From a virus, in IMG/VR virus record IMGVR_UViG_3300021431_002079, positions 1,975-65,974 of that record: a DNA stretch of 64,000 bases; one strand, given 5' to 3'. Positions within the stretch are counted from its first letter, which is position 1; each line of letters starts with the position of its first letter. The notes beneath the pieces were generated by a model. The model searched no databases, was not told the DNA's origin, and was given only the letters and a program-made list of their open reading frames with translations. Below are positions 15,993 to 47,221 of this stretch, piece by piece. A program made the position numbers and the translations under genes.

Positions 15993-16400
15993 ATGAAATC
16001 ACTAAGTGTATACATACAAGAATCTGAAAAATCACCAAATGCATTTGTTATATTAAAACCAGGATTCATAAGTCATTTTGATGAATGGAAAAATATGTTA
16101 GAAGAAAATGGTTGGGAAATATTAAAAAAGAAAACAACTAAGTTATCATTAGATGATGCACAAAAATTATATAAGATGCATAAAGATAAAGATTTCTATA
16201 AAGATTTGTGTGAATACATGTCATCAGATAAATGCATATGTATGATTTGCTATAAAGATGTTAAAGACCCTATTGATAATATGAGTAAACTAAAAGATAA
16301 AGTTAGAAACAAATGGGGTAAAAGTGAAATGAAAAATGCTATGCATAGTTCAGACTCATTAAATAATGTTGTACGAGAAAAAAACATTATTTTTAATTAA
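15993..16400 (+). CDS. nucleoside diphosphate kinase-like protein (degenerate)
   Basis: N-terminal FVILKPGF resembles NDK FxxIKPDGV; C-terminal NAMHSSDSLNNVVREKNIIF aligns to NDK NxxHGSDSxExAxREIxLWF, with the catalytic-loop Gly replaced by Ser; 135 aa as in NDKs. Confidence 0.5.
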   Translation: MKSLSVYIQESEKSPNAFVILKPGFISHFDEWKNMLEENGWEILKKKTTKLSLDDAQKLYKMHKDKDFYKDLCEYMSSDKCICMICYKDVKDPIDNMSKLKDKVRNKWGKSEMKNAMHSSDSLNNVVREKNIIFN

Positions 16401-24312: not shown

Positions 24313-24908
24313 AAAAAATAAATACATATATAAATGAGAAGTTAAATTTATCTGCTCATAAATATACTTGTAAACCAAAAGATAAAGATGAACTTAGAGA
24401 TATAATAAAGGAACGTCTTGAGAAAGATAAAAATGTCAATCTAAATGATATAGATGTATCAGGTATAACAGATATGTCATATTTATTTTATGAGTTAGAT
24501 CCTCACAACATAGATATAAGTGAGTGGGACGTTTCTAATGTTACAGATATGTTTGAGATGTTTTGGGGATGTAAAAATTTTAATTCAAATTTGTCTAATT
24601 GGGATGTATCAAAAGTTACAGATATGAATGGTATGTTTTTTAATTGTGAAAAATTTAATTCTGATTTGAGTGAATGGAATGTCTTAAATGTTGAAGATAT
24701 GGGATTAATGTTTAAAAATTGTATAAATTTTAATTCTGATTTAAGTAACTGGGATGTATTAAATGTTATTAATATATTTAATATGTTTAATGGATGTAAA
24801 AAATTTGATTGTGATTTAAGTAATTGGGATATATCTAATGTTAAATATAAAAATGGGATGTTTGTTGGGTGTAACTTATTAAAAAATATACCAAACTGGT
24901 ACAAATGA
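24309..24908 (+). CDS. DUF285 / 26-residue-repeat protein with CTS-like leader (paralog 3)
   Basis: MKKINTYINEKLNLS; 5 repeats; ATGA overlap. Confidence 0.75.
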   Translation: MKKINTYINEKLNLSAHKYTCKPKDKDELRDIIKERLEKDKNVNLNDIDVSGITDMSYLFYELDPHNIDISEWDVSNVTDMFEMFWGCKNFNSNLSNWDVSKVTDMNGMFFNCEKFNSDLSEWNVLNVEDMGLMFKNCINFNSDLSNWDVLNVINIFNMFNGCKKFDCDLSNWDISNVKYKNGMFVGCNLLKNIPNWYK

Positions 24909-25504
24909 AAAAAATAAATACATATATAAATGAGAAGCTAAACATATCAACTAAGTATGCATACAAACCAAAAAATAAAATGGAATTAATAGATTTAGTT
25001 TCAGACCGTATTGAACATAACCCAAATGCAAGCTTAAACGATATAGATGTATCAGGTATAACAGATATGTCATATTTATTTGAACTTGAAGATCCTTATA
25101 ATATAGATATAAGTGAATGGGATGTAAGTAATGTTACAAATATGAGTAATATGTTTAGTGTATGTGAGAATTTAAATTGCGATATATCTAATTGGGATGT
25201 TAGCAATGTTACAGATATGAGTGGTATGTTTTGGGGTTGTAAGAATTTTGATTGCGATTTAAGTGGTTGGGATGTCTCAAGTGTTGAAGATATGAATTCT
25301 ATGTTTCGTATGTGTTATAAATTTAATTCAAACATAAGTGGTTGGGATGTTAGCAATGTTAAAAATATAACTTGTATGTTTATGAATTGTGACAAGTTTA
25401 ATTGTGATTTGAACAATTGGCCTATACGAAAATATACCCGTATGTTTAGTGCATTTTATGGGTGTGATTCATTAAAAAATAAACCAAAGTGGTACAAAAG
25501 TTAA
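24905..25504 (+). CDS. DUF285 / 26-residue-repeat protein with CTS-like leader (paralog 4)
   Basis: MKKINTYINEKLNIS (5' 33 nt identical to 24309); 5 repeats. Confidence 0.75.
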   Translation: MKKINTYINEKLNISTKYAYKPKNKMELIDLVSDRIEHNPNASLNDIDVSGITDMSYLFELEDPYNIDISEWDVSNVTNMSNMFSVCENLNCDISNWDVSNVTDMSGMFWGCKNFDCDLSGWDVSSVEDMNSMFRMCYKFNSNISGWDVSNVKNITCMFMNCDKFNCDLNNWPIRKYTRMFSAFYGCDSLKNKPKWYKS

Positions 25505-25954
25505 ATGAAAGCTATAGATACATACATAAATGAAAAATTAAATTTATCTACACAGTATACTTGTAAACCAAAAGATTCAGATGAACTTAGACGTATAATA
25601 AAGGAACGTATTGAGAAAGATAAAGATGCTAATTTAAACGACATAGATGTATCAGATATAACAGATATGAATGCTTTATTTTATTCATTAGATCCTTATA
25701 ATATAGATTTATCTGAATGGGAGGTCTCAAATGTTGAAGACATGGATTATATGTTTATGAACTGTACTAAATTTAATTGTGATTTATCTTGTTGGGATGT
25801 CTCAAATGTTAAAAGTATGAACAAAATGTTTTATGATTGTAAAAAATTTAATACTAACTTAAATGATTGGGAGGTCTCAAATGTTAAGAGTATGAATTAT
25901 ATATTTGATGGATGTACATCATTAAAAAATAAACCTAACTGGTATAAAAGTTAA
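25505..25954 (+). CDS. DUF285 / 26-residue-repeat protein with CTS-like leader (paralog 5, 3 repeats)
   Basis: MKAIDTYINEKLNLS; shortest copy (149 aa). Confidence 0.75.
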   Translation: MKAIDTYINEKLNLSTQYTCKPKDSDELRRIIKERIEKDKDANLNDIDVSDITDMNALFYSLDPYNIDLSEWEVSNVEDMDYMFMNCTKFNCDLSCWDVSNVKSMNKMFYDCKKFNTNLNDWEVSNVKSMNYIFDGCTSLKNKPNWYKS

Positions 25955-26626
25955 ATGAAAGCTATAGATACATACATAAATGAGAAACTAAATTTATCTA
26001 CTAAGTATACTTGTAAACCAAAAAATAATGATGAGCTTAGGAAGATAATAATAGAGCGTCTTAATAAAAATGAAGATGTAAATTTGAACGATATAGATGT
26101 ATCAGATATAACAGATATGTCATTTTTATTTGATAGATTAGGTCCTCATAATATAGATATAAGTGAGTGGGATGTCTCAAATGTTACAGATATGAATGCT
26201 ATGTTTTATGATTGTGATAATTTTAATTGTGATTTAAGTGAATGGGATGTCTCTAATGTTACAAATATGCATTCTATGTTTTTAAATTGTGAAAAATTTA
26301 ATAGCGATTTAAGTAACTGGGATGTTAGTAATGTTAAAAATATGTATAGAATGTTTTATAATTGTGATAATTTTAATTCTGATTTAAGTGAGTGGGATGT
26401 ATCTAATGTCACAAATATGACATGTATGTTTGAATGGTGTCAAAAATTTAATTGTGACTTAAGTGATTGGGATGTCTCAAATGTTACAAATATGTATAGA
26501 ATGTTTTATAATTGTAATAATTTTAATTCTGATTTAAGTGAGTGGGATGTTAGTAATGTTGAAGATATGTATAAGATGTTTTATGGTTGTATATCTTTAA
26601 AAAATAAACCTAGTTGGTACTTATGA
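25955..26626 (+). CDS. DUF285 / 26-residue-repeat protein with CTS-like leader (paralog 6, 6 repeats)
   Basis: MKAIDTYINEKLNLS identical leader to 25505; conserved junction ...WYKS-TAA-ATG. Confidence 0.75.
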   Translation: MKAIDTYINEKLNLSTKYTCKPKNNDELRKIIIERLNKNEDVNLNDIDVSDITDMSFLFDRLGPHNIDISEWDVSNVTDMNAMFYDCDNFNCDLSEWDVSNVTNMHSMFLNCEKFNSDLSNWDVSNVKNMYRMFYNCDNFNSDLSEWDVSNVTNMTCMFEWCQKFNCDLSDWDVSNVTNMYRMFYNCNNFNSDLSEWDVSNVEDMYKMFYGCISLKNKPSWYL

Positions 26627-26994
26627 AAACAATAAACAACTACATAAATGAGAAACTAAATTTATCTAAGTATACTTGTAAACCAAAAGATAAAGAAGAG
26701 CTTAGAAAGATAATATGGAAGCGTCTTGAGAAAGATAAAGATGCTAATTTAAACGACATAGATGTATCAGGTATAAAAGGTATGTCATGGTTATTTTATA
26801 ATTTAGATCCTCATGACATAGATATAAGTGAGTGGGATGTTTCAAATGTTGAGGATATGGGAGGTATGTTTAGTGGATGTAAAAATTTTAATTCAGATTT
26901 AAGTGATTGGGATGTGTCTAATGTTGTAAATATGGATAACATGTTTGATGGATGTACATCTCTAAAAAATAAACCAAGCTGGTATAAAAGATAA
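26623..26994 (+). CDS. DUF285 / 26-residue-repeat protein with CTS-like leader (paralog 7, 2-3 repeats)
   Basis: MKTINNYINEKLNLS; start chosen at internal MK of track ORF 26614. Confidence 0.7.
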   Translation: MKTINNYINEKLNLSKYTCKPKDKEELRKIIWKRLEKDKDANLNDIDVSGIKGMSWLFYNLDPHDIDISEWDVSNVEDMGGMFSGCKNFNSDLSDWDVSNVVNMDNMFDGCTSLKNKPSWYKR

Positions 26995-27065: not shown

Positions 27066-28115
27066 ATGAATAATTTATTGTACATTGGTCTTAATGGATT
27101 AGCTGGTTCTGGTAAAGATACTGTAGCTAAAATGCTTAAGACTATTTTATCAAAAGATTGGGAGACATTAGAAGAATGTAAGAAATATTATTTTTCAGTA
27201 TACACTAATCCTACACAATCAGCAACATTTCCGCCAACACCAGAAGATGAACATTCTCCAGTGATGTGTATTGCATATGCAGATCAACTTAAAGAAATAT
27301 GTTCATCAATATTTGGAATTCCTATTAAAAGATTTTATCAAAACAAATCAAATGCTTGGATATGTTTTAATGATAAATTCCAGTATACTGAGATAAAACC
27401 TAATCCTGAAAATATATTAACAGCTGAAGAGTATTATTATAATGTTTCAGGTTATAGTGTTGATTCTGATGTCAAATATTGGATGTCTTTACGAGAGGTC
27501 TTAGTTTATGTTGGTACTTATGTATTACAGCAAAACGTTAACAAACATATTTTTGTTAATATTGTTAGAAACAAAATTCGTGAAGCACAATGTAGGAATC
27601 ATAATTTGAAATATGTTATTATCACTGATAATAGATTTAAACATGAATTAGATTATATTTATGAGAACAATGGAACAACAATAACTATAACTCGTAATTC
27701 TGTTGAACAACTTGATAATGTTGCTGAACATCAGTTGGATGATGAAGAAAATTATGATTATGTTATAGATAATTCAGGATCTTATGATGAATTGTTTACA
27801 ACTATATGGGATATAATTCATAATGATATAATATTTAAGAATAAAACTATTGAATTATATACTAGAGATAATATTAATAATTACTTACGATTAGTTGAAA
27901 GTAATGAACAACGAGATATATATCAGTTATGTTTACCATATAAAATTCAAAAATTATATCGAAATGAAGGTAAAATAACAATGATAGATCCGACAGGTGG
28001 TCCATTAATATGTGTTGGAGAAAAAATAGAAGGAACTGATATTATACCTAATTATATATCCATGGATGAATCAAAAATACATAATGATTTCTTACTATGG
28101 GTAACAAAGGAATAG
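27066..28115 (+). CDS. P-loop kinase, dNMP-kinase (T4 gp1)-like N-terminal domain
   Basis: IGLNGLAGSGKDTVAKML matches the GxxxSGKDT P-loop of T4-type deoxynucleoside monophosphate kinases; C-terminal about 150 aa extra. Confidence 0.5.
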   Translation: MNNLLYIGLNGLAGSGKDTVAKMLKTILSKDWETLEECKKYYFSVYTNPTQSATFPPTPEDEHSPVMCIAYADQLKEICSSIFGIPIKRFYQNKSNAWICFNDKFQYTEIKPNPENILTAEEYYYNVSGYSVDSDVKYWMSLREVLVYVGTYVLQQNVNKHIFVNIVRNKIREAQCRNHNLKYVIITDNRFKHELDYIYENNGTTITITRNSVEQLDNVAEHQLDDEENYDYVIDNSGSYDELFTTIWDIIHNDIIFKNKTIELYTRDNINNYLRLVESNEQRDIYQLCLPYKIQKLYRNEGKITMIDPTGGPLICVGEKIEGTDIIPNYISMDESKIHNDFLLWVTKE

Positions 28116-33465: not shown

Positions 33466-34089
33466 ATGAAGTCACTTAATACTTATATTATAGAATCACA
33501 ACAATCTCATGTAGATGATTTCATTGATTTCTTGCTAAAAAATTCTAAAGAAGGAGAACTTAAGACTAATAATAAATCATACTATGATTATTTTAATGAA
33601 TGTGACCCTTTTGATAATTCAAAGTTTTCACAAAACATTGATATGACTGCTTATGCTGAAGACTATTGTGAAGAACATGAGTTAGATTCTGTATATGATG
33701 ATAAAGAAAACTTCATTAATTATATTAAAGATATAGTTGATGAACAATTGACTTTAGACTTAGATCATAATTTGATAAAGATTGAAAGAGTCATTAGTAT
33801 TGGTGATTCATCATTTTCAAAATATAAAGGAAATATAGGTATATATTGGACTTACATAGAAGGTATGGGTGATTCACATGGTGCTGTAGGTAGTTCAAGA
33901 AACAACATAACTATATGTGCATTAGTGGATCCTAAAGATGTAAATTGGGGAGAGACTATTGCAGCTAATATTATAGATCCAGATGAATGTGAATTAACAT
34001 TAAATGAAGATGCTCCTATACAAATTACAAAGATATTAGATGTTAACAGAAAACCTATAATAGAAAAAAATTTATTATATAAAGCTTAA
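33466..34089 (+). CDS. CTS-like-leader protein (about 207 aa)
   Basis: MKSLNTYIIESQ leader at internal Met of track ORF 33445. Confidence 0.6.
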   Translation: MKSLNTYIIESQQSHVDDFIDFLLKNSKEGELKTNNKSYYDYFNECDPFDNSKFSQNIDMTAYAEDYCEEHELDSVYDDKENFINYIKDIVDEQLTLDLDHNLIKIERVISIGDSSFSKYKGNIGIYWTYIEGMGDSHGAVGSSRNNITICALVDPKDVNWGETIAANIIDPDECELTLNEDAPIQITKILDVNRKPIIEKNLLYKA

Positions 34090-34733
34090 TGAAATCTTTG
34101 CATACATATATAGTCGAAAAATCATCAGATTTATATGGGTCAGAAACTGGTTTAATAATATTTGATATAGATGATACATTAGTTAAAGCAGATTCAAGTA
34201 TTATGAAAATATATAAAAATGAGCCAGGTAAACCAGAGATTGCATTAACAACGGATGAATATGCAAAAGATCCAGATGCAGGTGATTCAAGTAAAAAATC
34301 ATGGTTTGATTATAGAGATTTCAATGATCCATTAAAAGTTTATGATTCTATAGTTAAAGGAACACCATTAATTAAGAATCTAAAAATTATGGATTCATAT
34401 ATTAAAAAAGGTTATGATTTTTGTTTTTTGACGGCTCGTGGTTGTGAAGATGTTGTTAAAAGTGCATTAGATTCATTTTTAGAATTTAGAGATAAAGATG
34501 GTGTATTAAAAAAATTAGGAAATGTATTTAAGAAATCATTATCACATGCTATAAATGATGAAATGAAAAATTATTCAGGTAATAGTGATCCTGAAAAGAA
34601 AGCACAAGTATTAAAAAATTTATGTGATAAATATGATAAAGTGATATTTGTTGATGATGATAAGAAAAATGTAGATGCGGCTAGAAAATTAAATATAAAA
34701 AATCTAACAGTTATTAAAGCTTGGGAAGAATAA
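34089..34733 (+). CDS. HAD-superfamily phosphatase with CTS-like leader (Pnk-phosphatase-like candidate)
   Basis: leader MKSLHTYIVEKS; HAD motif I LIIFDIDDTLV (DxDxT); downstream FLTARG and VIFVDDDKKNV resemble motifs II/IV. Confidence 0.6.
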   Translation: MKSLHTYIVEKSSDLYGSETGLIIFDIDDTLVKADSSIMKIYKNEPGKPEIALTTDEYAKDPDAGDSSKKSWFDYRDFNDPLKVYDSIVKGTPLIKNLKIMDSYIKKGYDFCFLTARGCEDVVKSALDSFLEFRDKDGVLKKLGNVFKKSLSHAINDEMKNYSGNSDPEKKAQVLKNLCDKYDKVIFVDDDKKNVDAARKLNIKNLTVIKAWEE

Positions 34734-34755
34734 ATAAAAAATAAAATAAATATCT

Positions 34756-35406
34756 ATGAAATCATTAAAAGAATATATTATTAATGAATCTTTATCAAAT
34801 GAAATAACTGAATTAAGAAATAAATTAAAAAATTTAGATAAACAAAAAATTTTTGATGGAAATTATAATTTAGATGATTCATTAGATCAAGAATTTTATG
34901 ATATATTAATTTCATTAAATAGTCCAAATTCATCAAATAGTACTTTAATTAGTACATGGAAAATGTTGTTTTCAAAATTAATTGTTGAACCATTAGTTGG
35001 AGAATTAATAGGAGATAACAAATGTGAATACTCTACTATTAAAGTTGATAGAACAGAAAAATGGGATATTAAATATGATAACAATATATTAATAGACATA
35101 AAAGCAACTTATAATAATTATACACATAATTTTGGATTTTCTAAAAAGGATGCAGATTATGTAATAAATTATAATAAACAAGATATTAATAAAAGATATG
35201 TATTATTCGTATACCCAGAAATTAAAACTTGGAATGATGCTACGAAATTATATAAAAATAAATCTGAAGTTGACATGAAACTAATTAGTTATTCAGATTT
35301 TAAAGATATATTAAATAACAATGATTTTGAAGAAAAAAAATCAAACATATTAATTCCATATTCTTTCATTAATGAAAATGATAAATTTAGAAAGTTTAAA
35401 AAATAA
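34756..35406 (+). CDS. CTS-like-leader protein (216 aa)
   Basis: MKSLKEYIINESL leader. Confidence 0.6.
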   Translation: MKSLKEYIINESLSNEITELRNKLKNLDKQKIFDGNYNLDDSLDQEFYDILISLNSPNSSNSTLISTWKMLFSKLIVEPLVGELIGDNKCEYSTIKVDRTEKWDIKYDNNILIDIKATYNNYTHNFGFSKKDADYVINYNKQDINKRYVLFVYPEIKTWNDATKLYKNKSEVDMKLISYSDFKDILNNNDFEEKKSNILIPYSFINENDKFRKFKK

Positions 35407-35426
35407 TTAATTATATTAAAGCTATA

Positions 35427-35459
35427 AGAAAATCTATTAATAATGGATTTTCTTTTTTA
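35427..35459 (+). terminator. rho-independent terminator inside the cassette array
   Basis: stem agaaaatc / gattttct then T6. Confidence 0.5.
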
Positions 35460-35492
35460 TTTTTAAATATAAGAAAATTTTATTAAAACAAA

Positions 35493-36638
35493 ATGAAAAG
35501 TTTAAAAGAATCATTATCAGATAAAGGTATACAAAAATTAACAGATTATCTTAAATCTGCTGAAGGTTTAGAAGATTCAAAAATTGACGAATATATTAAA
35601 GTATTATCAAAACATGCCAAAAAATCAGGTATAAAACAAGATGACTATGAAACATTCTTTAAAAATCATGGTTTATCTGAATTAAATTGGGGAAGAAAAA
35701 ATAGTGCAATTAAACAATTTGTTGATTTATTCTCTGAAAATGATCATATAGATGAATTATCAAACATAGTAAAATATAATGGAACTGTTTCTATTGATAA
35801 TGTAACAGAAACTGGTAATATATTTAAGGATTATTGTAAAGGGTGGGAAGATGAAGCAAAAACAATTGCTACATGGACCAATTCTAAATCGGCTAATGCT
35901 GGACCTTGTGAAATGCTTTTGAAATTTATACTTCATGAAGGTAATTCTAAAACTTTTGGAGATGTTGGAATAAATGATGAAGAAATGGAAGTAAAAGCTG
36001 GAACACTTAAAGGAAAATCTGGTTCAGGCGGTCATGCAGCAGGTCAAAAAGGAAACATTAGAAAAACATCGTCTATATATTATTATTTAGATAAATATTT
36101 ATTAAATATAGAAACATCTAATAAGATTGCAGAAAATAGAGAATATTTGCAAAATGAAAATGGTATTAAAGATTTTAATAATAAATTAAAAGAAGCTGGT
36201 TTACTTGAATCATCAAATTATAAAACGATTGCTAATAATATAGTTGGTGCATTATGCTTCCAATATGATGAAGCAAATACTAATACATTAAATTCTGATA
36301 AATTAGAAAATTTGCAAAAATCAACATTAAAATTTATTAAAGATAATATAAAGGCAGACGGGTTTAATAAACAAGATTTATTAAATTTAGTTGGGTGTAT
36401 TCAATTATATCTTTATTCACAAATAGAAAAATTTGATTATTTTTTCGCTGTGCTTGTAGATAAAAACATAGATAATGAATCTATTAATAATGGCTTTTAT
36501 ATTTGTGTAAAAAATTGTAAAGATAATGATAGTGATTTATTAAATTTTAATAAAATGTTAAAACATTTAAAATTTGGTGTATTAGATTCAACAACATCTT
36601 CACAAGGAAGAACTGGTAAAATATATATAGTTAAATAA
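35493..36638 (+). CDS. hypothetical protein (381 aa) with truncated leader
   Basis: MKSLKESLSD (leader lacking YI); Gly-rich KGKSGSGGHAAGQKGN segment. Confidence 0.5.
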   Translation: MKSLKESLSDKGIQKLTDYLKSAEGLEDSKIDEYIKVLSKHAKKSGIKQDDYETFFKNHGLSELNWGRKNSAIKQFVDLFSENDHIDELSNIVKYNGTVSIDNVTETGNIFKDYCKGWEDEAKTIATWTNSKSANAGPCEMLLKFILHEGNSKTFGDVGINDEEMEVKAGTLKGKSGSGGHAAGQKGNIRKTSSIYYYLDKYLLNIETSNKIAENREYLQNENGIKDFNNKLKEAGLLESSNYKTIANNIVGALCFQYDEANTNTLNSDKLENLQKSTLKFIKDNIKADGFNKQDLLNLVGCIQLYLYSQIEKFDYFFAVLVDKNIDNESINNGFYICVKNCKDNDSDLLNFNKMLKHLKFGVLDSTTSSQGRTGKIYIVK

Positions 36639-37357
36639 TGAAACAAGTAAAAGTGTGTCTAGGAAGATTCCAACCTTTCACATTAGGTCATCTTAAGATG
36701 GCTACTTATAAAGATTTAAAAGGTCCTGATAAAGAGCAGAAAGATACTTTAAGAGAACAACCTAATTTAAAAGAAATATCTAATCAAAAAACAGTCATAT
36801 TAGCTATATCTACCCCAGACGAAAAGGTAGATACTAGGCATCCTTTCAATGATAGTTTAATGAAAGATGAATTTGAATTGATAAAGAAAAACTACAAGGA
36901 TGATATTGAAGATATTATTTATGTTAAGTCAGCTGATATATGTGCATGGGGTGAATTATTAAAACAAAAAGGTTATCAAGCTTCCGTGTGGTTAACTGGT
37001 TCAGATGAGTTTAAGATGTATAAAGGTATGGCAATGAAAGTTCTAGAGTATGAAGAACATAATAGAAATAATTATGATTGCAAAGGAGCTTACACACAAT
37101 CATTTTATGTAGAAGAAATTGAACGTACAGAAGATAAAGATTTTGTATCATCAATATCCGGAACAAAAGTTCGTCAAGCTTTATTAGATAATGATAAAGA
37201 ATTATTTTCAAAGATGATGCCAAAAGGAGCAGATAAATATTTTGATGAATTTAAGAAAGCTGTTGAAAATGCTCCAGAACCTGTAAAGAAAACAAATAAA
37301 AAAGTTAAAGAAGGAATGATGTCTCTTAAGAATTACATATTAGAATCATTAAAATGA
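36638..37357 (+). CDS. cytidylyltransferase-fold adenylyltransferase (NMNAT/NadM-like or PPAT-like); C-terminus carries a leader remnant
   Basis: VCLGRFQPFTLGHL = GRFQPF + (H/T)xGH nucleotidyltransferase signature; ISGTKVRQAL resembles the ISSTxIR motif; no N-terminal leader, but the ORF ends ...MMSLKNYILESLK. Confidence 0.5.
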   Translation: MKQVKVCLGRFQPFTLGHLKMATYKDLKGPDKEQKDTLREQPNLKEISNQKTVILAISTPDEKVDTRHPFNDSLMKDEFELIKKNYKDDIEDIIYVKSADICAWGELLKQKGYQASVWLTGSDEFKMYKGMAMKVLEYEEHNRNNYDCKGAYTQSFYVEEIERTEDKDFVSSISGTKVRQALLDNDKELFSKMMPKGADKYFDEFKKAVENAPEPVKKTNKKVKEGMMSLKNYILESLK

Positions 37358-38283
37358 AATCACTTATAACATACATACAAGAATCTTTAATATTTGAAGG
37401 TGGGCATTCTGTGGATGGTGTTGAACCTATTCGTGGAGATTTAGCAAAAAAAGTTGCAGATGAGATTATTGAAAAAATAAAAAATGAATTCAATATAGAA
37501 TGTGCAGCTCTTGGATCAACAGGTAAGAAAGGTAAAAATCAAACATCTGGAGATATAGATATCGCCGTTCAAATGCAATGGGAAGATAAAGATAAACTTA
37601 TAGATTTTGTTAAAAAGGAATTTCCTGATAGTCCATTTGGAAATATCGTTAACTATCTTAATGTATTTAATATTGGATATAAATATAATGAAGATGGTAA
37701 AGATAAGTTAGTTCAAGTGGACTTTATGTTTGTTGATGATGTTGAATGGGCACAATTTGTTTATTTCTCTCCAAATTTCTTAAAGAATGAATCTCAATTT
37801 AAAGGATCATGGAGGTCAACATTATTAAGAGGTATATGTGCATGTACACCAGCAGAAAAAGTAAACAAAAAATATAAAACAGAATATTTTGATGATGGTA
37901 AGACAGTAAAATCATTTTGGAAGTTTACATTTTCACAGGCTGATGGGTTATTTGCAGATCATAAAACATATGAAGGTAATAAAAAACCTTTGAAAAATCC
38001 TAAGACAATAAAAGACGATAGAGAATACATATCTAAAAATATTGAAGAAATATTACATATGTGCTTAGGTAAAGATGCAACACGAGATGATTGTAATTCA
38101 TATGAGACATTACTTAATTTTATATCTAGTGATAGATATGAATTTAGATCTGTAGAACAGTTACAAAAAATTAAAGAATGGTTATTTGATAATACAGACC
38201 TACTTAGAGAAGCAACAGATCAAGTTAAGAAGGATGCTGAAAATTTATTCGATAATACTATAAAATATATAAAACAAATTTAA
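37354..38283 (+). CDS. Pol-beta-superfamily nucleotidyltransferase with CTS-like leader (paralog A)
   Basis: leader MKSLITYIQESL; AALGSTGKKGKNQTSGDIDIAVQ = hG[GS]...[DE]h[DE]h NTase motif; third acidic residue in VQVDFMFV. Confidence 0.6.
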   Translation: MKSLITYIQESLIFEGGHSVDGVEPIRGDLAKKVADEIIEKIKNEFNIECAALGSTGKKGKNQTSGDIDIAVQMQWEDKDKLIDFVKKEFPDSPFGNIVNYLNVFNIGYKYNEDGKDKLVQVDFMFVDDVEWAQFVYFSPNFLKNESQFKGSWRSTLLRGICACTPAEKVNKKYKTEYFDDGKTVKSFWKFTFSQADGLFADHKTYEGNKKPLKNPKTIKDDREYISKNIEEILHMCLGKDATRDDCNSYETLLNFISSDRYEFRSVEQLQKIKEWLFDNTDLLREATDQVKKDAENLFDNTIKYIKQI

Positions 38284-39158
38284 TGAAATCATTATTAACA
38301 TATATAAAAGAATCATTAATAAATGAAGGTGGCAATGCTGTAAAATCAGAACCAATTCCAGCAGTTATTGCACCAAAGGTATATGACGAAATAGAAGAGA
38401 AAGTACATTCTATATCTAAGTTTAAAGATATAGATATGGCAGCATTAGGTAGTATCGGTAAAAAACCAGATGACCAAACAAATGGAGATATAGATATTGC
38501 TGTTAAAGTTGACACAAAAGAAGAACTTAATGAAATAGTTGATACATGTTTTGATGATTGTGAAATTAACTATAACACAATGAAAACTATTACGTCGTTT
38601 GGGTATCCGTATAACATAGATGGTTATAAAGGAATTGCACAAGTTGATTTTATGATAGTTAAAAATATGGACTGGGCAAAAGCATATTTCCATTCTCCTA
38701 ATCTTAAGGCTGGTGAATCTAAATATAAAGGAGTTGTTAGAACAACATTGTTAAACGATATTATTTCATGTATACCAGTTAAAGATGCTAAAGATGAATA
38801 CTTTGAAGATGGTGTTACAGTTAAACGTCATTGGAAACATACATTTAATACTGAAGGAGTATTTATTCAATTAGTAGATTATTGTGGTAAGAATGGTAAA
38901 CCTGTAAAAAATGGTAAAAAACTTAAAGAGTTTGAAAAATTAGTTACCAATGATCCAATAAATATGGTTAAATTTATATTTGGTGATAATGGTGATATTA
39001 AAGATATAAATTCAGCTGAATCATTATGGGCAGCAATTCACGATAATAATAAATTTTCTTGGGGAGATACTATATTAAAAAATATAGAAGAAAAATTTAT
39101 TAATGACCCTCAAGTGCAAGATAAGATAGATAAAAAGGATTTTCCTTGTAAGTTTTAA
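38283..39158 (+). CDS. Pol-beta-superfamily nucleotidyltransferase with CTS-like leader (paralog B)
   Basis: leader MKSLLTYIKESL; AALGSIGKKPDDQTNGDIDIAVK; AQVDFMIV; clear paralog of 37354. Confidence 0.6.
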   Translation: MKSLLTYIKESLINEGGNAVKSEPIPAVIAPKVYDEIEEKVHSISKFKDIDMAALGSIGKKPDDQTNGDIDIAVKVDTKEELNEIVDTCFDDCEINYNTMKTITSFGYPYNIDGYKGIAQVDFMIVKNMDWAKAYFHSPNLKAGESKYKGVVRTTLLNDIISCIPVKDAKDEYFEDGVTVKRHWKHTFNTEGVFIQLVDYCGKNGKPVKNGKKLKEFEKLVTNDPINMVKFIFGDNGDIKDINSAESLWAAIHDNNKFSWGDTILKNIEEKFINDPQVQDKIDKKDFPCKF

Positions 39159-39179
39159 AAATATATAATATAATAAATT

Positions 39180-39581
39180 ATGAAAAATATAGTAGATTAC
39201 ATATCTGAAGCATTATATGTAAACGAGAGTGCTAATGGTAACCAAGTTATATTTAACGCTTGTATGGAATTAGATAATAATAAAACAATATATGAAAAAC
39301 AACTTTTGCCATTAGTTAAAAATTTAGTAAAGAAACACAAAGATGGTAAGTTCGATATTAAAAAACTTGAAGAATCATCAGTTATAGCTAAGTTATGCCA
39401 AGCATGTTTACGTGCAGTTAAAAGCTCATTAACTGGTGAAGATAGAAAGCGTTTGACTAAATTTGTTACTGGTTGTGTTATTAAAAATGTTGAAAACATT
39501 GGAGAACTAACACTAACAAAGGAAGAAGAAGATTATGCTGTTGAATGGGATTACAATAATTCCGAAAAATGTGGATGGTAA
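39180..39581 (+). CDS. CTS-like-leader protein (133 aa)
   Basis: MKNIVDYISEAL leader. Confidence 0.55.
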   Translation: MKNIVDYISEALYVNESANGNQVIFNACMELDNNKTIYEKQLLPLVKNLVKKHKDGKFDIKKLEESSVIAKLCQACLRAVKSSLTGEDRKRLTKFVTGCVIKNVENIGELTLTKEEEDYAVEWDYNNSEKCGW

Positions 39582-39584
39582 TAC

Positions 39585-40943
39585 ATGGATTATTTAGTAG
39601 ACAAATATATTAAAAAACCTGATTACGTTAAAGAATTGTTTAACAAATCAGCAACCGTATCATTAAAGATTGATGGTTCAGCATTTCAGATATTTTATAA
39701 TAAAGAAGAAGATAAAATAGAATATCATAAACGTGGTGGATCATCAAGTAAGCTTGGTCCAATTATTGATGAGTATACACAATTGTTTACAAAACATTTA
39801 AATGATGCTATAGAGTTTTTTGATAATAAAAAAGATTTATTAAAAGAAAATAAATTCTATGCTATTGAAATATTTAATAATATGTATGTTCTTTTAACTG
39901 TAATAGATAATAATGATAATATAATCACTGAAGTATCTGATATAGCAAGAAAATTAAATATTGAATCTTTACCGATTTTATTTAATGGTAAATTAAAATT
40001 TAATGACGATATTATCTCATTATTAACTTTAGATGAAAATACATCAAATGAAGATTTTATATCAGCAATTAAAGGAACATTTGGACCTGGAGATTATGAA
40101 AAATTCTTAAAAGGAGATGAAGTTGAAGGTATTGTTTTAACATGGGTTGTAGATAATAAACCATTACAATATAAAATTATTAATCCTGCATTTAAGACAA
40201 GACATGAAGCTGAACAAAAGAATAAATTAAAAGAAGCAGAAAAAGATACAAAACAAATAAACAAGTTAATAGAATCTTTATATGATAGACTAAAAGATGT
40301 TGCTAAATATAGAGATGATAACTGGATAAAAAATCTTGATTTAAATTTCTTTGAAATGTGTTCAGATCCTAATTGGTTATCAGATATTAAAAATATAGCA
40401 AAAGAGATAACTCCAAACACTAATAAATGGTTTATACTTCAAACAAATAGAGTAAGCTCAATTATAAAAGATTTATTGGATCATAATGGAAATGAAATGA
40501 AAACCATTTATGAAAAATATTTAATGACTTTCAATAAACCAAAAAAGAGAGCATTTATTATATCTAAAGAATTTCAAAATAATATAAATAACATAATAGA
40601 AAAACTACAATCGGTAAAAGAATCATTAAAATTATATACTAAAATAAATATGAAATCAATATCACAATACATAAATGAATCACAAGATAAGTATTTTACT
40701 GAACAAGAAAAAGGTAAGATACTAAAAGATATGTGGGATAAGGATGGACAATTTTATAAATTTTTAAAAGATAAAGTTAATTCATTATGTGCTGCAGATA
40801 TAAATAATTATTTTGACCAATGTTTAGATGATGAAAGATGTTTAGCAGAATTTGCCTCATATATTAGTATGGTTATCGGTCGTCATAACTTTAGTTTAGA
40901 ACAAGTTAAAAAATTTATGAATACTGAAGATCTTAAAGGATAA
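39585..40943 (+). CDS. RNA ligase-like nucleotidyltransferase (KxDG) fused in-frame to a leader-tagged C-terminal module
   Basis: ATVSLKIDGSAFQIFY (motif I KxDG at residue 28), EVEGIVLTW (motif V-like); an internal leader MKSISQYINESQ at 40650 (codon 356) begins a about 98-aa C-terminal segment that may be a separate gene. Confidence 0.55.
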   Translation: MDYLVDKYIKKPDYVKELFNKSATVSLKIDGSAFQIFYNKEEDKIEYHKRGGSSSKLGPIIDEYTQLFTKHLNDAIEFFDNKKDLLKENKFYAIEIFNNMYVLLTVIDNNDNIITEVSDIARKLNIESLPILFNGKLKFNDDIISLLTLDENTSNEDFISAIKGTFGPGDYEKFLKGDEVEGIVLTWVVDNKPLQYKIINPAFKTRHEAEQKNKLKEAEKDTKQINKLIESLYDRLKDVAKYRDDNWIKNLDLNFFEMCSDPNWLSDIKNIAKEITPNTNKWFILQTNRVSSIIKDLLDHNGNEMKTIYEKYLMTFNKPKKRAFIISKEFQNNINNIIEKLQSVKESLKLYTKINMKSISQYINESQDKYFTEQEKGKILKDMWDKDGQFYKFLKDKVNSLCAADINNYFDQCLDDERCLAEFASYISMVIGRHNFSLEQVKKFMNTEDLKG

Positions 40944-41604: not shown

Positions 41605-42204
41605 ATGAAAACATTAAAAACATTTATTTTAGAATCTCAATCAGAAATTTTACCTATAATAAAAAGAATGATGGGATCAATTGATTATTCAAAACTAAAA
41701 TCATATAATGGAGAACAAGATTCAAACAAATTTGATGTTCAAAAAGAAAATGAACTTTTATTAATTAGTAATATTGATGAAGGCGATGATTTTAAGTTTG
41801 TTGGAACTGCTGAATATTATAATATTGAAACAGGAAAAGATTTCAATAGTTTATCTGATAAAGAAAAGGCAGATTATGATTCTAAAAATGGAGATATTAT
41901 TGTTTTAGATAAAGATAATAATATTAAATTTAGAATTGATGTTAAACTTAGTGATAAATATTTAGGAGCTATATCATTAGGTTCATTAACTAAATTTGAT
42001 AAAGATGGATATTATTTATTAATCTGTAAAACTGGTAAATTCTTCAAATTAGTATCTCATAAAGATGTTGTAGATAATGTTAAGAATGGAAAATTAAAAT
42101 TAAATGCTCCTATAAATAATTATAAAGGTTATGATGTAGAATGGGAAGGTGAAAAATTAACATCAGAATATTTTATTAAAGGAGCAGATTTAAGAAAAAT
42201 TTAA
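41605..42204 (+). CDS. CTS-like-leader protein (199 aa)
   Basis: MKTLKTFILESQ leader. Confidence 0.6.
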   Translation: MKTLKTFILESQSEILPIIKRMMGSIDYSKLKSYNGEQDSNKFDVQKENELLLISNIDEGDDFKFVGTAEYYNIETGKDFNSLSDKEKADYDSKNGDIIVLDKDNNIKFRIDVKLSDKYLGAISLGSLTKFDKDGYYLLICKTGKFFKLVSHKDVVDNVKNGKLKLNAPINNYKGYDVEWEGEKLTSEYFIKGADLRKI

Positions 42205-42530: not shown

Positions 42531-42568
42531 AATAAAGTGGGGAATAAACATTTATTTAATAACTTAAG

Positions 42569-42602
42569 AGTATCACAATTTAAAATTGTGATACTTTTTT
42601 TA
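42569..42602 (+). terminator. rho-independent terminator closing the cassette array
   Basis: stem agtatcacaatt / aattgtgatact then T7. Confidence 0.65.
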
Positions 42603-42712: not shown

Positions 42713-45241
42713 ATGAAAACAATATATATAACATTACTTTGTATTTTATTAAATTTTACACCTATAAATTTTATACCTGTAAATTCTCAGACTCGTGCAG
42801 AAATGTCAAGTCAACAATGGTGTGGAGTAATGGTTGACACAATTATTGGAAATGATAAGTATCCTGATGTTTTTGATAGAGACCCACAAGGCTTACCTAT
42901 TATATTATATAATGTTGGTACTGGATGTTTTATAACCCAAGGTGGAGATTGGGCTATGGAAGGTCGTCTATTTTATTCTGATTTTGGACGAACTATGTAT
43001 TTATGTAACAATGGACGTATAAACAGTGGTATTACTGAAAGAAATGTTAATGTTAAGAAGAATAGTTTTTGTGTAAGACCACCAGCACCATTTGGAAAAA
43101 ATTGGAATGACATTAAAAACATCAATTTCACTACGTTGATGGATGGTGAATATAGAAACGAAACTTTTCAAAAATGGGAATTTGAACGTATTGAAGGTGA
43201 AACTGGAGATACTTGCACATATTATATGTATCAGAAATTTAATACTAACACAAAATACTACTTTGGTGCTGTCTATGGGGAATACAACGGTGACAAGGGT
43301 GTTGGGCAATTAATATTTCTTGATGATGATCGTTCTTGTTGGACAACAGCACCAGTTAAAGGTGTAACAACAAAATATCAATTAGAAAATGGAGATGAAG
43401 TCGAATTACAAAAACTTTATCAATGGCGCTTAGTTTCCATCGAAGAATTTTTAAGAGTATTAAATAGTGATGAAGCTGGATTAAATCCAAGTGTATCAGC
43501 ATTGATACCAGATAGAGATTTTACTCGTAATGCTATTGATTTCTTTAGTGAAAATCCTAATCATGGTTGGACAATATGCCGTTTAGCTAATCATACATAT
43601 AAAGATGGTGATGATAAACGTTATCCATACACATGGGGTAACTATAAGATGGGATCTGATGTTAATAGTAACAAACAACGTTCAAGAGAATTATTAGAGG
43701 AATCATGGGATTCTCCTGTAAGATTAAAGGCTGTATTTGATGCTGATATAACCCAAGAACGTGGTAAGAAAGATGCTAAATATGGGTTTATGGAATTTGA
43801 AGGTGTTGGATATATTTATTCAAATTTCAAAGTAACTAAACCAGGTTGGTATGAAATAACTTCTATTGCGATTAATCAAAGTGATAATAACGATGCACAT
43901 ATGTTTGCTCGTGTAATAGATGATGCAGATAGTCTAAAACAAGAAAATGAATTTGAAATACCAATAACAGATATACCAAGTTATAGTAGTATTGAATTAG
44001 ATAAAGTATCATTAGGAACATATAAAAAAGGATACGATAATAATGGAAAAGATGGATATGAGAATTGTTTAGTTATGGGTAAAGAATTACTTGCCAATGG
44101 TGAAGTTCATCAAAGAAAAGTTTGGGTATTAGTTTCTGAAAAGGATTTTAATGATGGTAAGAAAACAATTCGTGTAGGTATTAGGAAAGATAATGCTACA
44201 ATGTCTAATAAAACTAATGGTGGTTATTATGACTTAGATTGGGTATGTGTAGATGATATACGTGCAATATATATGGGTATGTCTCCAGCATTCTTTTATG
44301 AAGACATGGAAACTTTAAATTACCTTGATGATATAAATCACGAGGATCTTTACTTAGCTAATGAATACCCAAAACGTGGTCCTGAAGGTGAGTATGGAGG
44401 AGCTGTTAGTATACAACGTAAGTTCACTAATAATGAATGGAATACATTTTCATTTATATTACCATTAACTGGAGAACAAATTCGTAATGCATTTGGTGAT
44501 AAAACTGAATTATTAGAATTAGTTGGTATTGGTACATTATCAAATAATGAAAATATTATTGATTTTAAAACAGTTAATTTAATAACATTAGATCATGTTG
44601 TTGTACCAGGAAAACTTTATATGATTAAACCATCAAAGTTACCAGTGTATGGTGAAAGTCCTCGTAAGACAAGGGCGTACTATTATGACTTAGGTAGAAT
44701 GTTTTTCTCAATTAAATCTGAACCACAAGAGTATAAATATCCTGTTATAGATTTAACAAAGTTACCATATAAGAGTACTGATGTTGGTTCATATCAAGGT
44801 AGAAATAATGGAACAGAACATGTGACATACATTCAAACTCCAAATTACAGTAATTTTAGAGTTGATAGATATGGGAATGTGATGGCTAAAGTTAATGCTG
44901 TAGATAGTACATATGCACCAAAAGGAGCTTATGTAATGAGTGGTGGAAAAATGTATGAATTAGCTAAAGATACTCCACTTAAAGGATTCCGTGGATGGAT
45001 AACATTAACCCATAGCATATTTGCAAATAGTAGTGCAGCTGCTTTAGGAACACCATTTTCAATAAATGGTATATTTGATCAAGATGAAACCCCAATAGAA
45101 ACTGACACAAAAATAATTACATCTATAAAAAACACCAATACATCAATATATGATATAACTGGTAAAAAGATTACTAATTCAATTAACTCTTTATCACCGG
45201 GTTTATATATCGTAAATGGAAAAAAATTACTTATAAAATAA
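42713..45241 (+). CDS. secreted protein (842 aa) with Sec signal peptide and T9SS (Por) C-terminal sorting domain
   Basis: N-terminus MKTIYITLLCILLNFTPINFIPVNSQT (signal peptide); C-terminus ...NTNTSIYDITGKKITNSINSLSPGLYIVNGKKLLIK matches the Por_Secre_tail pattern (vYDlxGrxV...LxxGiYivk...kk). Confidence 0.7.
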   Translation: MKTIYITLLCILLNFTPINFIPVNSQTRAEMSSQQWCGVMVDTIIGNDKYPDVFDRDPQGLPIILYNVGTGCFITQGGDWAMEGRLFYSDFGRTMYLCNNGRINSGITERNVNVKKNSFCVRPPAPFGKNWNDIKNINFTTLMDGEYRNETFQKWEFERIEGETGDTCTYYMYQKFNTNTKYYFGAVYGEYNGDKGVGQLIFLDDDRSCWTTAPVKGVTTKYQLENGDEVELQKLYQWRLVSIEEFLRVLNSDEAGLNPSVSALIPDRDFTRNAIDFFSENPNHGWTICRLANHTYKDGDDKRYPYTWGNYKMGSDVNSNKQRSRELLEESWDSPVRLKAVFDADITQERGKKDAKYGFMEFEGVGYIYSNFKVTKPGWYEITSIAINQSDNNDAHMFARVIDDADSLKQENEFEIPITDIPSYSSIELDKVSLGTYKKGYDNNGKDGYENCLVMGKELLANGEVHQRKVWVLVSEKDFNDGKKTIRVGIRKDNATMSNKTNGGYYDLDWVCVDDIRAIYMGMSPAFFYEDMETLNYLDDINHEDLYLANEYPKRGPEGEYGGAVSIQRKFTNNEWNTFSFILPLTGEQIRNAFGDKTELLELVGIGTLSNNENIIDFKTVNLITLDHVVVPGKLYMIKPSKLPVYGESPRKTRAYYYDLGRMFFSIKSEPQEYKYPVIDLTKLPYKSTDVGSYQGRNNGTEHVTYIQTPNYSNFRVDRYGNVMAKVNAVDSTYAPKGAYVMSGGKMYELAKDTPLKGFRGWITLTHSIFANSSAAALGTPFSINGIFDQDETPIETDTKIITSIKNTNTSIYDITGKKITNSINSLSPGLYIVNGKKLLIK

Positions 45242-45518: not shown

Positions 45519-46202
45519 ATGTTAAATATAAACACATATATAAACGAGAAACTTAACATATCCACCAAGTACACCTGTAAACCAAAAGATAAATATGAGC
45601 TTAGAGATATAATAGAAAAACGTCTTGAGAAAGATAAAGATGTAGACTTAAATGATATAGATGTGTCAGATATAACAGATATGTCAATTTTATTCTGGAA
45701 ATTAGACCCTCATAATATAGACATAAGTGAGTGGAATGTTTCAAAAGTTAAAAGCATGGAGAGTATGTTTTTTAGTTGTAAAAACTTTAATTGTGACTTA
45801 AGCAATTGGAATGTCTCTAATGTTTATAATATAACATCTATGTTTAGTGAATGTGAAAGTTTTAATTCAGATTTAAGTAACTGGGATGTTTCGAATGTTA
45901 TAAACATAGATAGCATGTTTGACAATTGTAAAAAATTTAATTGTGATTTAAGTAGTTGGAATGTCTCAAAAGTTAAAAATATGTCTTGTATGTTTTTAAA
46001 TTGTGAAAACTTTAATTCAGATATAAGTGAATGGGATGTCTCAAAAGTTACAGAGATGAGATACATGTTTTATAATTGTAAAAATTTTAATTTTGACTTA
46101 AGTGGTTGGGATGTCTCAAATGTTAAAGATATGACAAAAATGTTTGAAGGTTGTACATCATTAAAAAATAAACCTAACTGGTACCATGAAGAAGATAACT
46201 AA
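45519..46202 (+). CDS. DUF285 / 26-residue-repeat protein with leader (array 2, copy 1; 7 repeats)
   Basis: MLNINTYINEKLNIS; 227 aa. Confidence 0.7.
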   Translation: MLNINTYINEKLNISTKYTCKPKDKYELRDIIEKRLEKDKDVDLNDIDVSDITDMSILFWKLDPHNIDISEWNVSKVKSMESMFFSCKNFNCDLSNWNVSNVYNITSMFSECESFNSDLSNWDVSNVINIDSMFDNCKKFNCDLSSWNVSKVKNMSCMFLNCENFNSDISEWDVSKVTEMRYMFYNCKNFNFDLSGWDVSNVKDMTKMFEGCTSLKNKPNWYHEEDN

Positions 46203-46716
46203 TTACATACAAGAAAAACTAAATTTATCTAAGTACACTTGTAAACCAAAAGATAGATTAGAACTTTTAAGTATAATAGAAAGACGTCTTGAACGAAATA
46301 AAGATGTAGATTTTAATGACATTGATGTATCAGATATAACGGATATGTCTTTTCTATTTGAAGAATTAGATCCCCATAATATAGATATAAGCGAGTGGAA
46401 TGTTTCAAAAGTTGAAGATATGAGGAGTATGTTTAACGGGTGTGAAAATTTTAATTGTGATTTATCTGAGTGGGATGTCTCAAATGTTAAACACATGAAC
46501 CAAATGTTTAAAAATTGTAAAAACTTTAATTCAGATTTAAGTAGCTGGAATGTATCACAAATTAAATATATGTTTGATATGTTTGATGGGTGTAAAAAAT
46601 TTAATTCAGATTTAAGTGGATGGAATGTATCTAATGTTAAAGATATGTCAGATATGTTTGATGGATGTAATTCGTTAAAAAATAAACCAAATTGGTACAA
46701 TGAAAAAACTAAATAA
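46186..46716 (+). CDS. DUF285 / 26-residue-repeat protein with leader (array 2, copy 2)
   Basis: MKKITNYIQEKLNLS; 17-nt overlap with previous gene. Confidence 0.7.
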   Translation: MKKITNYIQEKLNLSKYTCKPKDRLELLSIIERRLERNKDVDFNDIDVSDITDMSFLFEELDPHNIDISEWNVSKVEDMRSMFNGCENFNCDLSEWDVSNVKHMNQMFKNCKNFNSDLSSWNVSQIKYMFDMFDGCKKFNSDLSGWNVSNVKDMSDMFDGCNSLKNKPNWYNEKTK

Positions 46717-47221
46717 TTACATACAAGAAAAACTAAATTTATCTAAACACATTATTAAACCAAAAGATTCAGATGAACTTAGACATATAATAAAGGAACG
46801 TCTTAAAAAAGATAAAGATGCAGATTTAAATGATATAGATGTATCAGGTATAACAGATATGTCATATTTATTTAATAATTTAGACCCTCACAATATAGAT
46901 ATAAGTGAATGGGATGTCTCTAATGTTATAAACATGAGCAAAATGTTTTTTTATTGTGAAAATTTTAATACCGATTTAAGTGGGTGGGATGTTAGTAATG
47001 TTAAAAATTTTTGGTTTACATTTTATGAATGTTACAATTTTAATTCTGATTTAAGTAATTGGGATGTATCACATGCTCAAGATATATCTTATATGTTTTA
47101 TGGGTGTAAAAAAATTGATTGTGATTTAAGTGATTGGGATATATCAAATATTAAATATATGGATGGTACATTTAATGGATGTAATTCGTTAAAAAATAAA
47201 CCAAGTTGGTATAAGAACTAA
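46700..47221 (+). CDS. DUF285 / 26-residue-repeat protein with leader (array 2, copy 3)
   Basis: MKKLNNYIQEKLNLS; 32 nt identical to the 5' end of 46186. Confidence 0.7.
   Translation: MKKLNNYIQEKLNLSKHIIKPKDSDELRHIIKERLKKDKDADLNDIDVSGITDMSYLFNNLDPHNIDISEWDVSNVINMSKMFFYCENFNTDLSGWDVSNVKNFWFTFYECYNFNSDLSNWDVSHAQDISYMFYGCKKIDCDLSDWDISNIKYMDGTFNGCNSLKNKPSWYKN

Follow-up and report, generated by a model that had tools for sequence, protein, structure and literature searches.

Why would a phage put one short peptide on a phosphatase, on a pair of nucleotidyltransferases (NTases) and on several proteins without family matches, and keep an RNA-type ligase beside them? The question is raised by positions 34089-40943 of a 64,000-nucleotide (nt) stretch of viral DNA (positions 1,975 to 65,974 of IMG/VR virus record IMGVR_UViG_3300021431_002079), which is called the window below. 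We believe that this region is best read, on sequence and gene order, as a conserved end-processing module within a long array of cassette genes. The peptide resembles the capsid-targeting sequence (CTS) of phage T4, and we tentatively propose, at slightly less than even weight, that the module is a T4-style kit for healing and sealing nucleic-acid ends which is loaded into the capsid, with RNA somewhat likelier than DNA as its substrate. All open reading frames (ORFs) named in a preliminary description of this DNA were found where it had placed them, on the + strand. The features of the region are as follows.

34089-34733, + strand: HAD-superfamily phosphatase, 214 amino acids (aa), N-terminal leader MKSLHTYIVE, DIDDT motif
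34756-35406, + strand: leader-tagged 216-aa protein (w216), leader MKSLKEYIINE
35493-36638, + strand: 381-aa protein (w381) with an E...D...ExK signature, degenerate leader MKSLKE--SLSDK
36638-37357, + strand: NadM/archaeal-type NMNAT-like HIGH-motif nucleotidyltransferase, without N-terminal leader
37354-38283, + strand: Pol-X-like nucleotidyltransferase 1 (NTase 1), 309 aa, leader MKSLITYIQE
38283-39158, + strand: Pol-X-like nucleotidyltransferase 2 (NTase 2), 291 aa, leader MKSLLTYIKE
39180-39581, + strand: leader-tagged 133-aa protein (w133), leader MKNIVDYISE
39585-40649, + strand: RNA-ligase-like nucleotidyltransferase (KxDG) with a helical C-domain, without N-terminal leader
40650-40943, + strand: in-frame fused cassette (w97), 97 aa, internal leader MKSISQYINES

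Conserved gene order

The window proteins were compared by BLASTP with four related contigs (L001, L004, L007 and L008). The gene order of the module was shared by the window and all four contigs, at 38-80% identity.

Window: HAD, w216, w381, NMNAT-like, NTase 1, NTase 2, w133, ligase fused to w97
L001: NMNAT-like, NTase 1, NTase 2, ligase
L004: HAD, NMNAT-like (fused to another domain), NTase 1, NTase 2, ligase
L007: HAD, two unknowns, NMNAT-like, NTase 2, ligase
L008: HAD, w216, unknowns, NMNAT-like, NTase 2, DUF285 cassette, ligase

Orthologues of NTase 2 were present in all four contigs, and the HAD gene lay upstream of the NMNAT-like and ligase genes in L004, L007 and L008. In L008 it was directly followed by an orthologue of w216 (50% identical). 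The cassette w97 was a separate gene in L001 (13477-13773) and L008 (9428-9721), with 71-77% identity.

Pol-X-like nucleotidyltransferases

NTase 1 and NTase 2 were paralogous, with 39% identity, the same catalytic residues and an invariant GS...K-K...G-D-I-D...Q-x-D core. The preliminary description had called them two paralogous minimal NTases; the paralogy holds and the word minimal does not, as both have about 300 aa and the predicted structure shows a Pol-X-like palm and thumb, then a helical C-domain. In the AlphaFold2 (AF2) model (pLDDT 91.9), one helix preceded the palm, and the leader was the only low-confidence segment, apparently disordered. Structural searches, BFVD among the fold libraries, put family X polymerases on top, and the NTases had both the Pol-beta-type catalytic core (GS loop, DxD, third Asp) and the palm-thumb fold. 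Helix-hairpin-helix (HhH) fingers, 8-kDa domains and Pol X Pfam domains were not found in them. Their sole Pfam match was Polbeta (PF18765, E 0.015), and sequence and profile searches against PDB gave no match.

Two other roles had been suggested for the pair, and neither was borne out. The head-neck-body-tail architecture of class I CCA-adding enzymes, with close fold similarity, was not found, and CD-NTase or cGAS-like signalling enzymes ranked below family X in the fold search (cGLR 9.2, CdnE 8.1). PADLOC gave no significant defence-family match: NTase 2 had a marginal CBASS cyclase match (E 0.0022), and NTase 1 had no cyclase match and only a marginal match to PDC-S09 (E 0.007).

The Pol X and ligase of African swine fever virus (ASFV) form a similar pair, in that a small family-X-like fold with palm and thumb only is encoded beside a ligase in a large virus, and ASFV Pol X likewise has no HhH fingers and no 8-kDa domain. 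The present system differs from it in having two paralogues, no Pol X Pfam match at the sequence level, an extra C-terminal helical domain in the NTases, and an RNA-ligase-like ligase without an OB domain. On such models (base-excision repair by ASFV Pol X and ligase, or bacterial end joining by LigD), the module could be a DNA repair or end-processing kit, in which the Pol-X-like enzymes would fill gaps and the ligase would seal nicks in the phage genome. It could mend packaged or injected DNA, or damage by restriction or CRISPR. We consider this reading unlikely. It is favoured by the GSxGKK...GDIDI motif of the NTases, which we take to resemble GSFRRG...GDMDV of Pol beta, by the nuclease-like ExK protein in the module, and by T4 gp2-like DNA-end-protection genes that follow the ligase in L001 and L004 at a distance of up to about 4 kb. 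The missing HhH, fingers and 8-kDa DNA-binding domains speak against it, and so does the Pfam family found in relatives, which is RNA_ligase (PF09414).

NMNAT-like enzyme

The enzyme at 36638 carries the motifs GRFQPFTLGH and ISGTKVR, and GRFQPF[TH]xGH, S174, T176 and R179 were invariant in 7 homologues. It matched phrog_3041 'cytidyltransferase' at 1.2e-10. When a 7-sequence profile of the family was searched against PDB, 1f9a and 2qjo came first (E 3.6e-6, driven mainly by motif regions), and PPAT followed at about 0.2. An NMNAT/PPAT-like enzyme had been proposed here; the NMNAT side of that proposal is supported by profile and motifs and the PPAT side is not, while the curated NMNAT families TIGR01527 and NF002243 were missed with 18 bits against cut-offs of 181 and 127. 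The enzyme thus shares with archaeal/NadM NMNATs (best structures 1f9a, 2qjo, 1ej2 and 2qjt) the GRFQPF(H/T)xGH and SxTxxR motifs, and differs from them by a 30-residue insertion after the HIGH motif, by scores far below the curated cut-offs and by its fusion or linkage to the Pol-X-like enzyme. In proteins of 500-540 aa (P0026, P0035, P0037, P0038 and P0046), the NMNAT-like domain is fused directly to a Pol-X-like enzyme. We regard such fusions as strong evidence that the two enzymes act together.

A role in counter-defence nucleotide metabolism, in which the NMNAT-like enzyme would rebuild NAD+ after host depletion and the NTases would make or destroy signalling nucleotides, seems to us very improbable. 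The closest solved relatives of 36638 are indeed NMNATs, and the marginal cyclase match of NTase 2 would suit such a role. However, family X polymerases rank above CD-NTases, the curated NMNAT cut-offs are widely missed, and the conserved partner of these genes is the ligase. The preliminary description had thought of an NAD+ reconstitution route, and this found no support: no ORF resembling a Nampt partner was seen among the scanned ORFs of at least 400 aa in this window, and the partner with which the NMNAT-like gene is fused, or to which it is linked, is the Pol-X-like gene and not an NAD-pathway enzyme. This obligatory linkage argues against a stand-alone role in NAD+ salvage.

Ligases, kinase and phosphatase

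The 452-aa ORF 39585-40943 consists of the ligase (residues 1-355) fused to w97 via an internal leader at nt 40650. The ligase reads KIDG, and its motifs I, III, IV and V (K28 D30 G31, E95, E181 G182, K197) were invariant in 27 sequences. Pfam RNA_ligase gave only 9.8e-4 for this copy. The model (pLDDT 90.4) has an all-helical C-domain and no OB fold, and the fold scores were highest for RNA ligases: T4 Rnl2 9.2, Naegleria Rnl5 9.1, fungal Trl1 8.8, REL1 8.5, archaeal Rnl3 about 8.2 and T4 Rnl1 7.2, with DNA ligases at most 6.4. A profile of the ligase family found no match among PDB sequences, and when each of the four enzymes was searched singly against them, only chance matches came up. The KxDG RNA ligase of the preliminary description is supported by motifs and fold at superfamily level, as an RNA-ligase-like enzyme, and its single-gene anatomy has to give way to a fusion with w97. 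A second ligase, described as Rnl2-like, was also found.

3689-4534, + strand: second, untagged PF09414 RNA-ligase-like protein, 281 aa (PF09414 4.2e-15)

Its assignment as a ligase stands on PF09414, and the Rnl2 family TIGR02307 matched at 1.4e-6, far below its cut-off.

A candidate kinase was found in a relative. In L008 (441 kb), the cassette array that holds the ligase also encodes, about 1.7 kb farther downstream (10212-10736), a 174-aa AAA_33 P-loop kinase tagged with the leader MKSIINYIKE. This kinase matched PF13671 with 71.7 bits and was 26% identical to the kinase domain of T4 PseT over 136 residues (E 1e-6), P-loop included.

The HAD protein matched Pfam PF00702 (Hydrolase; 8.7e-7, 30 bits against a cut-off of 26.4), PF11019 (DUF2608; 31.7 bits, above cut-off) and phrog_415 (1.8e-10). 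Across 16 homologues, motifs I-IV were invariant or nearly so (D26 D28 T30, T115, K170/171, D189-191), and the leader residues M1, K2, Y7, I8 and E10 were invariant. The earlier call of a DxDxT HAD phosphatase is therefore confirmed at superfamily level. A T4 Pnkp type is not: PF25109 scored 15.4 bits against a cut-off of 27.6, while T4 PseT itself scored 199.8 bits, and hhalign aligned the protein with T4 PseT over only 34 columns around motif IV (probability 62%). A profile of the HAD family had no match in PDB.

T4 Pnkp (PseT) with Rnl1 is the known system to which the module may be compared, since a phosphatase, an RNA-type ligase and, in L008, a PNK-like kinase are encoded together. In the present case, the kinase and the phosphatase are encoded as two proteins, the HAD falls outside the PF25109 Pnkp type, the ligase resembles Rnl2/Rnl5 more than Rnl1, and the set is extended by an NMNAT-like enzyme and two Pol-X-like NTases; the enzymes of T4, for their part, are not packaged. 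Of the T4-like tRNA repair theme raised in the preliminary description, end repair is supported by the RNA-ligase fold and the PseT-like kinase of the relative, and the Pnkp-type HAD finds no support. As to the substrate, RNA is favoured because of the RNA-type ligase fold and the PNK-like kinase, and DNA because of the Pol-X-like fold and the ExK protein.

Three proteins of the module gave no family match. Family searches with w216 found nothing; D...(I/V)D(I/V)K strings in the leader-tagged products of 34756-35406 and 41605-42204, themselves without family match, are reminiscent of PD-(D/E)xK nuclease motifs. The w133 protein had no significant family match. The w381 family (57 homologues or representatives, most with the full leader) had no match in Pfam or PDB, profile search against PDB included. 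G137 and E140 were invariant in it, and G156, E166 and K168 were nearly so, and a PD-(D/E)xK nuclease is possible. BLASTP of w381 against the C-terminal half of a 615-aa fusion in L004 was not significant; a shared AGxxE...D...ExK pattern with 20% identity in the alignment tentatively suggests that the two are related. A kinase assignment of w381 was dropped, because its P-loop-like string AGTLKGKS was not conserved in the family.

The leader peptide

The leader consensus was MK-x-[LI]-x-x-[YF]-I-x-E. All six constrained positions were present in 22 of 86 ORFs on the + strand, whereas the 48 ORFs on the - strand had no such case, so that chance can hardly account for the motif. Among 26 leaders, position 4 was always I or L, position 7 was Y (25) or F (1), position 8 was always I, and position 10 was E in 24. 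The codons varied freely (Tyr by TAC 13 times and TAT 12 times, Ile/Leu by six codons), and identity was 0.42 in the 30 nt upstream against 0.69 within the leader. This free synonymous variation and the unconserved upstream DNA indicate that selection acts on the peptide, not on the DNA.

The motif stands at the N-terminus of the HAD, the Pol-X-like enzymes and the unknown proteins, and at the C-terminus or internally in the NMNAT-like enzyme and the ligase. It had been noticed on the phosphatase and the NTases, which is right for N-termini and incomplete for the module. The NMNAT-like enzyme ends in the leader-like tail MSLKNYILES (nt 37319-37345), and the motif also follows this domain in L004 and L008. 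In about half of 66 ligase representatives it was located at residues ~345-365, right after the ligase domain, and was followed by another cassette in some and by a few residues in others, often without Met (IKSLNNYITESKYK..., YKSLKEYVLEKLNK). Since Met is often missing, the tail is not merely a downstream start codon that is read through. Orthologues without a leader start exactly where the leader ends (e.g., MNTTVLTGGHS and MGGYAVKSS).

The CTS of T4 is MKTYQEFIAE (PMC8442874). Its mutational map has shown that targeting depends mainly on residues 4 and 7, and processing on residues 8 and 10 (PMC9026906). The conserved leader positions 4, 7, 8 and 10, together with the initial MK, coincide with these mapped positions. 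Studies have shown that the internal proteins of T-even phages are diverse and share only the CTS, and that T4 Alt is a packaged and ejected enzyme whose C-terminus is also trimmed by gp21 (PMC3012670; PMC9026906). The system in the window is like that of the T4 CTS, internal proteins (IPs) I-III and Alt in its 10-residue N-terminal MK peptide with hydrophobic residue 4, aromatic residue 7, Ile 8 and Glu 10, in its diverse, fast-evolving cargo with only the tag in common, and in the S77 protease of its head gene cluster; Alt is a precedent for enzyme cargo as well as for a C-terminal propeptide. It differs in its much larger set of cargo proteins (at least 26 ORFs of the 64 kb carry the tag), which includes nucleic-acid enzymes, a nucleoside diphosphate kinase (NDK) and BspA-like repeat proteins, in that the tag also occurs at C-termini and at the junctions of fused proteins, in that the host is a Bacteroidota gut bacterium, and in that packaging here is only predicted. 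The capsid-targeting leader of the preliminary description, read here as a T4-like propeptide cleaved by a protease, is supported by this match of positions and by the protease.

We also considered that the enzymes are cytoplasmic, like ordinary auxiliary genes of phages, and that the motif does not serve packaging. It might instead be a polyprotein processing or linker site, a complex-docking peptide, or a translation-start module that promotes cassette shuffling by recombination. The last idea would fit the presence of the motif at every fused-cassette junction, as expected if recombination between leaders reshuffles genes, and orthologues without the motif and metabolic enzymes among the tagged proteins (NDK and HAD) also suit a cytoplasmic location. 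However, conservation at the peptide level with free synonymous codons, the coincidence with four mapped CTS positions, the many ligases that retain C-terminal tags without cargo and without Met, and the T4-like head module with its S77 protease all weigh the other way, and we hold a cytoplasmic role to be decidedly unlikely.

The tagged proteins outside the module include an NDK.

15993-16400: NDK (PF00334 3e-20), leader MKSLSVYIQE

Together with tagged BspA-like DUF285 proteins, it makes the cargo set broad rather than repair-specific. If the tag means packaging, this housekeeping nucleotide kinase would be virion cargo.

A second class of leader, MK-x-I-N-x-Y-I-x-E-KLNLS-x-x-YTCKPK, was observed on at least 11 tandem paralogues (23045-26994, 46186-47221, also 16401-17000 and 45519-46202). 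Both of those scanned with Pfam were DUF285/BspA-like repeat proteins (PF03382, up to 4e-65). The same family also occurs in fusion with some ligase homologues elsewhere (PF03382 in P0130 and P0133).

Prohead protease and capsid protein

51532-53280, + strand: T4 gp21-type (S77) prohead protease (phrog_207 2.5e-42; PF03420 45.8 bits against a cut-off of 27)
53367-55139: major capsid protein, T4-like head module

The protease is presumed to be the processing enzyme for the leaders. T4 gp21 has a site-like LIE near its own N-terminus (PMC3012670; PMC9026906), and the present protease has LIYE at residues 7-10. Its C-terminal half contains six tandem W-[IV]-x-E-E-F-[AS]-P repeats of exact pattern (nt 52648-52860), and more if degenerate copies are counted. 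These 12-aa repeats (VQNW-I-T-E-EFAPE) follow an acidic, lysine-rich linker and present repeated aromatic-I-x-E sites, which gives them the look of a series of protease sites or of a fused scaffold. A KilA-N-like Pfam match (5.7e-8, residues 305-387) partly overlaps the start of the repeats. From its first ATG (53382-53396), the major capsid protein reads MFINE, then Q, which is a minimal copy of aromatic-I-x-E. Its propeptide may therefore be very short, whereas that of T4 gp23 has 65 residues.

Proposed action of the module

Genes, catalytic motifs, folds, synteny, fusions, the conservation of the tag and the presence of a protease are what the data show; packaging, cleavage, ejection, the substrate and the part played by the NMNAT-like enzyme are inferred from them. 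In this study, we suggest that the leader peptide, like the T4 CTS, would dock proteins onto the scaffolding core of the prohead. The protease 51532 would then cut after Glu, which would also resolve the fusion proteins. The mature enzymes would be retained in the head and ejected with the DNA, as are T4 IPs and Alt, and would mend broken nucleic-acid ends ahead of phage gene expression. In this scheme, the HAD may remove 3'-phosphates, the Pol-X-like enzymes may add nucleotides or fill gaps, and the ligase may seal nicks. The likelier substrate would be RNA, such as tRNA or mRNA cut by host nucleases. The most far-reaching form of the proposal is that a half-megabase phage loads a complete heal-and-seal pathway (phosphatase, PNK-like kinase in relatives, Pol-X-like polymerases, RNA-type ligase and NMNAT-like enzyme) into its capsid, with a tag that works at either terminus and as a self-cleaving polyprotein junction, and injects it for repair before expression. 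We think this complete form somewhat unlikely.

Several observations weigh against a capsid-loaded repair kit. By the sequence scores above, the HAD cannot be shown to belong to the T4 Pnkp type, a tblastn search found no polynucleotide 5'-kinase in the 64-kb window, and it is not clear where an NMNAT-like enzyme would fit into repair. By structure, the NTases match DNA polymerases best, and this favours DNA over RNA. No tRNA genes were found in the window, which leaves CCA repair without a link to tRNAs of the phage. The NTases of L001, L007 and the Lak megaphage Lak-B2 carry no tag, and since some orthologues do without it, packaging is not essential to enzyme function. Packaging a housekeeping NDK and a HAD phosphatase is not obviously useful. 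CTS function in T4 has been shown for N-terminal fusions, not for internal ones, and the literature searched held no virion proteomics or cleavage data for Lak-like phages.

CTS loading of diverse internal proteins in T-even phages and Pnkp/Rnl RNA repair in T4 are already known. What appears to be undescribed is a T4-like CTS in Lak-related megaphages, with dozens of cargoes and a position at either terminus and at fusion junctions; the conserved tagged module of Pol-X-like, NMNAT-like and HAD enzymes with a divergent RNA-type ligase; and the Pol-X-like phage family itself. Neither these genes nor any leader are mentioned in the papers on Lak and Jug phages. To our knowledge, no phage pre-packages repair-type enzymes.

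Source phage and other features of the window

The GC content of the window was 23-37%, and most genes lay on the + strand. Its sole nucleotide match in the phage collection was a 217-nt stretch with 68% identity to Prevotella Lak-B megaphages. At the protein level, NTase 1 (37354) had a counterpart of about 34% identity in each of the published Lak A, B and C genomes, and matches in the collection, by DNA and by protein, were limited to Lak genomes. Homologues of the proteins of the region were located on metagenomic contigs of 320-470 kb. The window also encodes the prohead protease, the major capsid protein and a tail sheath, which together form a T4-like head and tail module.

58873-61926: tail sheath, T4-like tail module

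Because of the Lak-only matches, the homologues on large contigs and the T4-like module, we assign the source to a low-GC, Lak-related megaphage of a distinct clade, as its genes indicate. The classical Lak-B2 NTase stands alone and untagged beside DHFR-TS, which suggests that the module is a feature of this clade.

Lak phages are known to recode TAG to Gln (code 15; PMC6784885). In the region of interest, every ORF has TAA or TGA as its stop, and the gene calls there stand despite such recoding. TAG was the stop of only 1 of 49 inspected ORFs (27066-28115), and a readthrough extension was not sensible for it. In L002 (8001-8894), the NTase gene has an internal in-frame TAG where database protein P0065 has Gln, which confirms the use of code 15 in that lineage.

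A promoter scan stayed at chance level (98 found, 107 expected). Between 31 and 43 kb, only one terminator-like hairpin was found (42566-42598, a 15-bp stem, then a T run). It stands directly after the last class-B leader ORF and may be where the cassette operon ends. The gene that immediately follows the cassette array (42713-45241) encodes an 842-aa protein with a signal-peptide-like N-terminus, and its C-terminal tail (…GLYIVNGKKLLIK) resembles, by eye only, a Bacteroidota type IX secretion sorting domain. The protein encoded immediately upstream of the protease, at 48610-50724, has 704 aa, with an N-terminal membrane segment, a match of residues 49-249 to phrog_200 and a coiled-coil-like tract of about 350 residues rich in Ala, Glu and Lys; no portal was recognisable in it.

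Significance

The module offers several leads. The Pol-X-like enzymes form an uncharacterised phage family that is conserved in all published Lak genomes, and the ligase belongs to a divergent RNA-ligase lineage with a new C-terminal domain. The pattern MK-x-[LI]-x-x-[YF]-I-x-E may serve as a rule to predict virion cargo in uncultured gut megaphages, and the tag is a candidate portable packaging tag for engineering. If the tag works as it does in T4, Lak-related megaphages would inject dozens of different proteins, repair-type enzymes included. The idea of T4 internal proteins, so far one of small anti-restriction proteins, would then cover an entire enzymatic pathway, and this would help to explain the non-DNA content of very large capsids.

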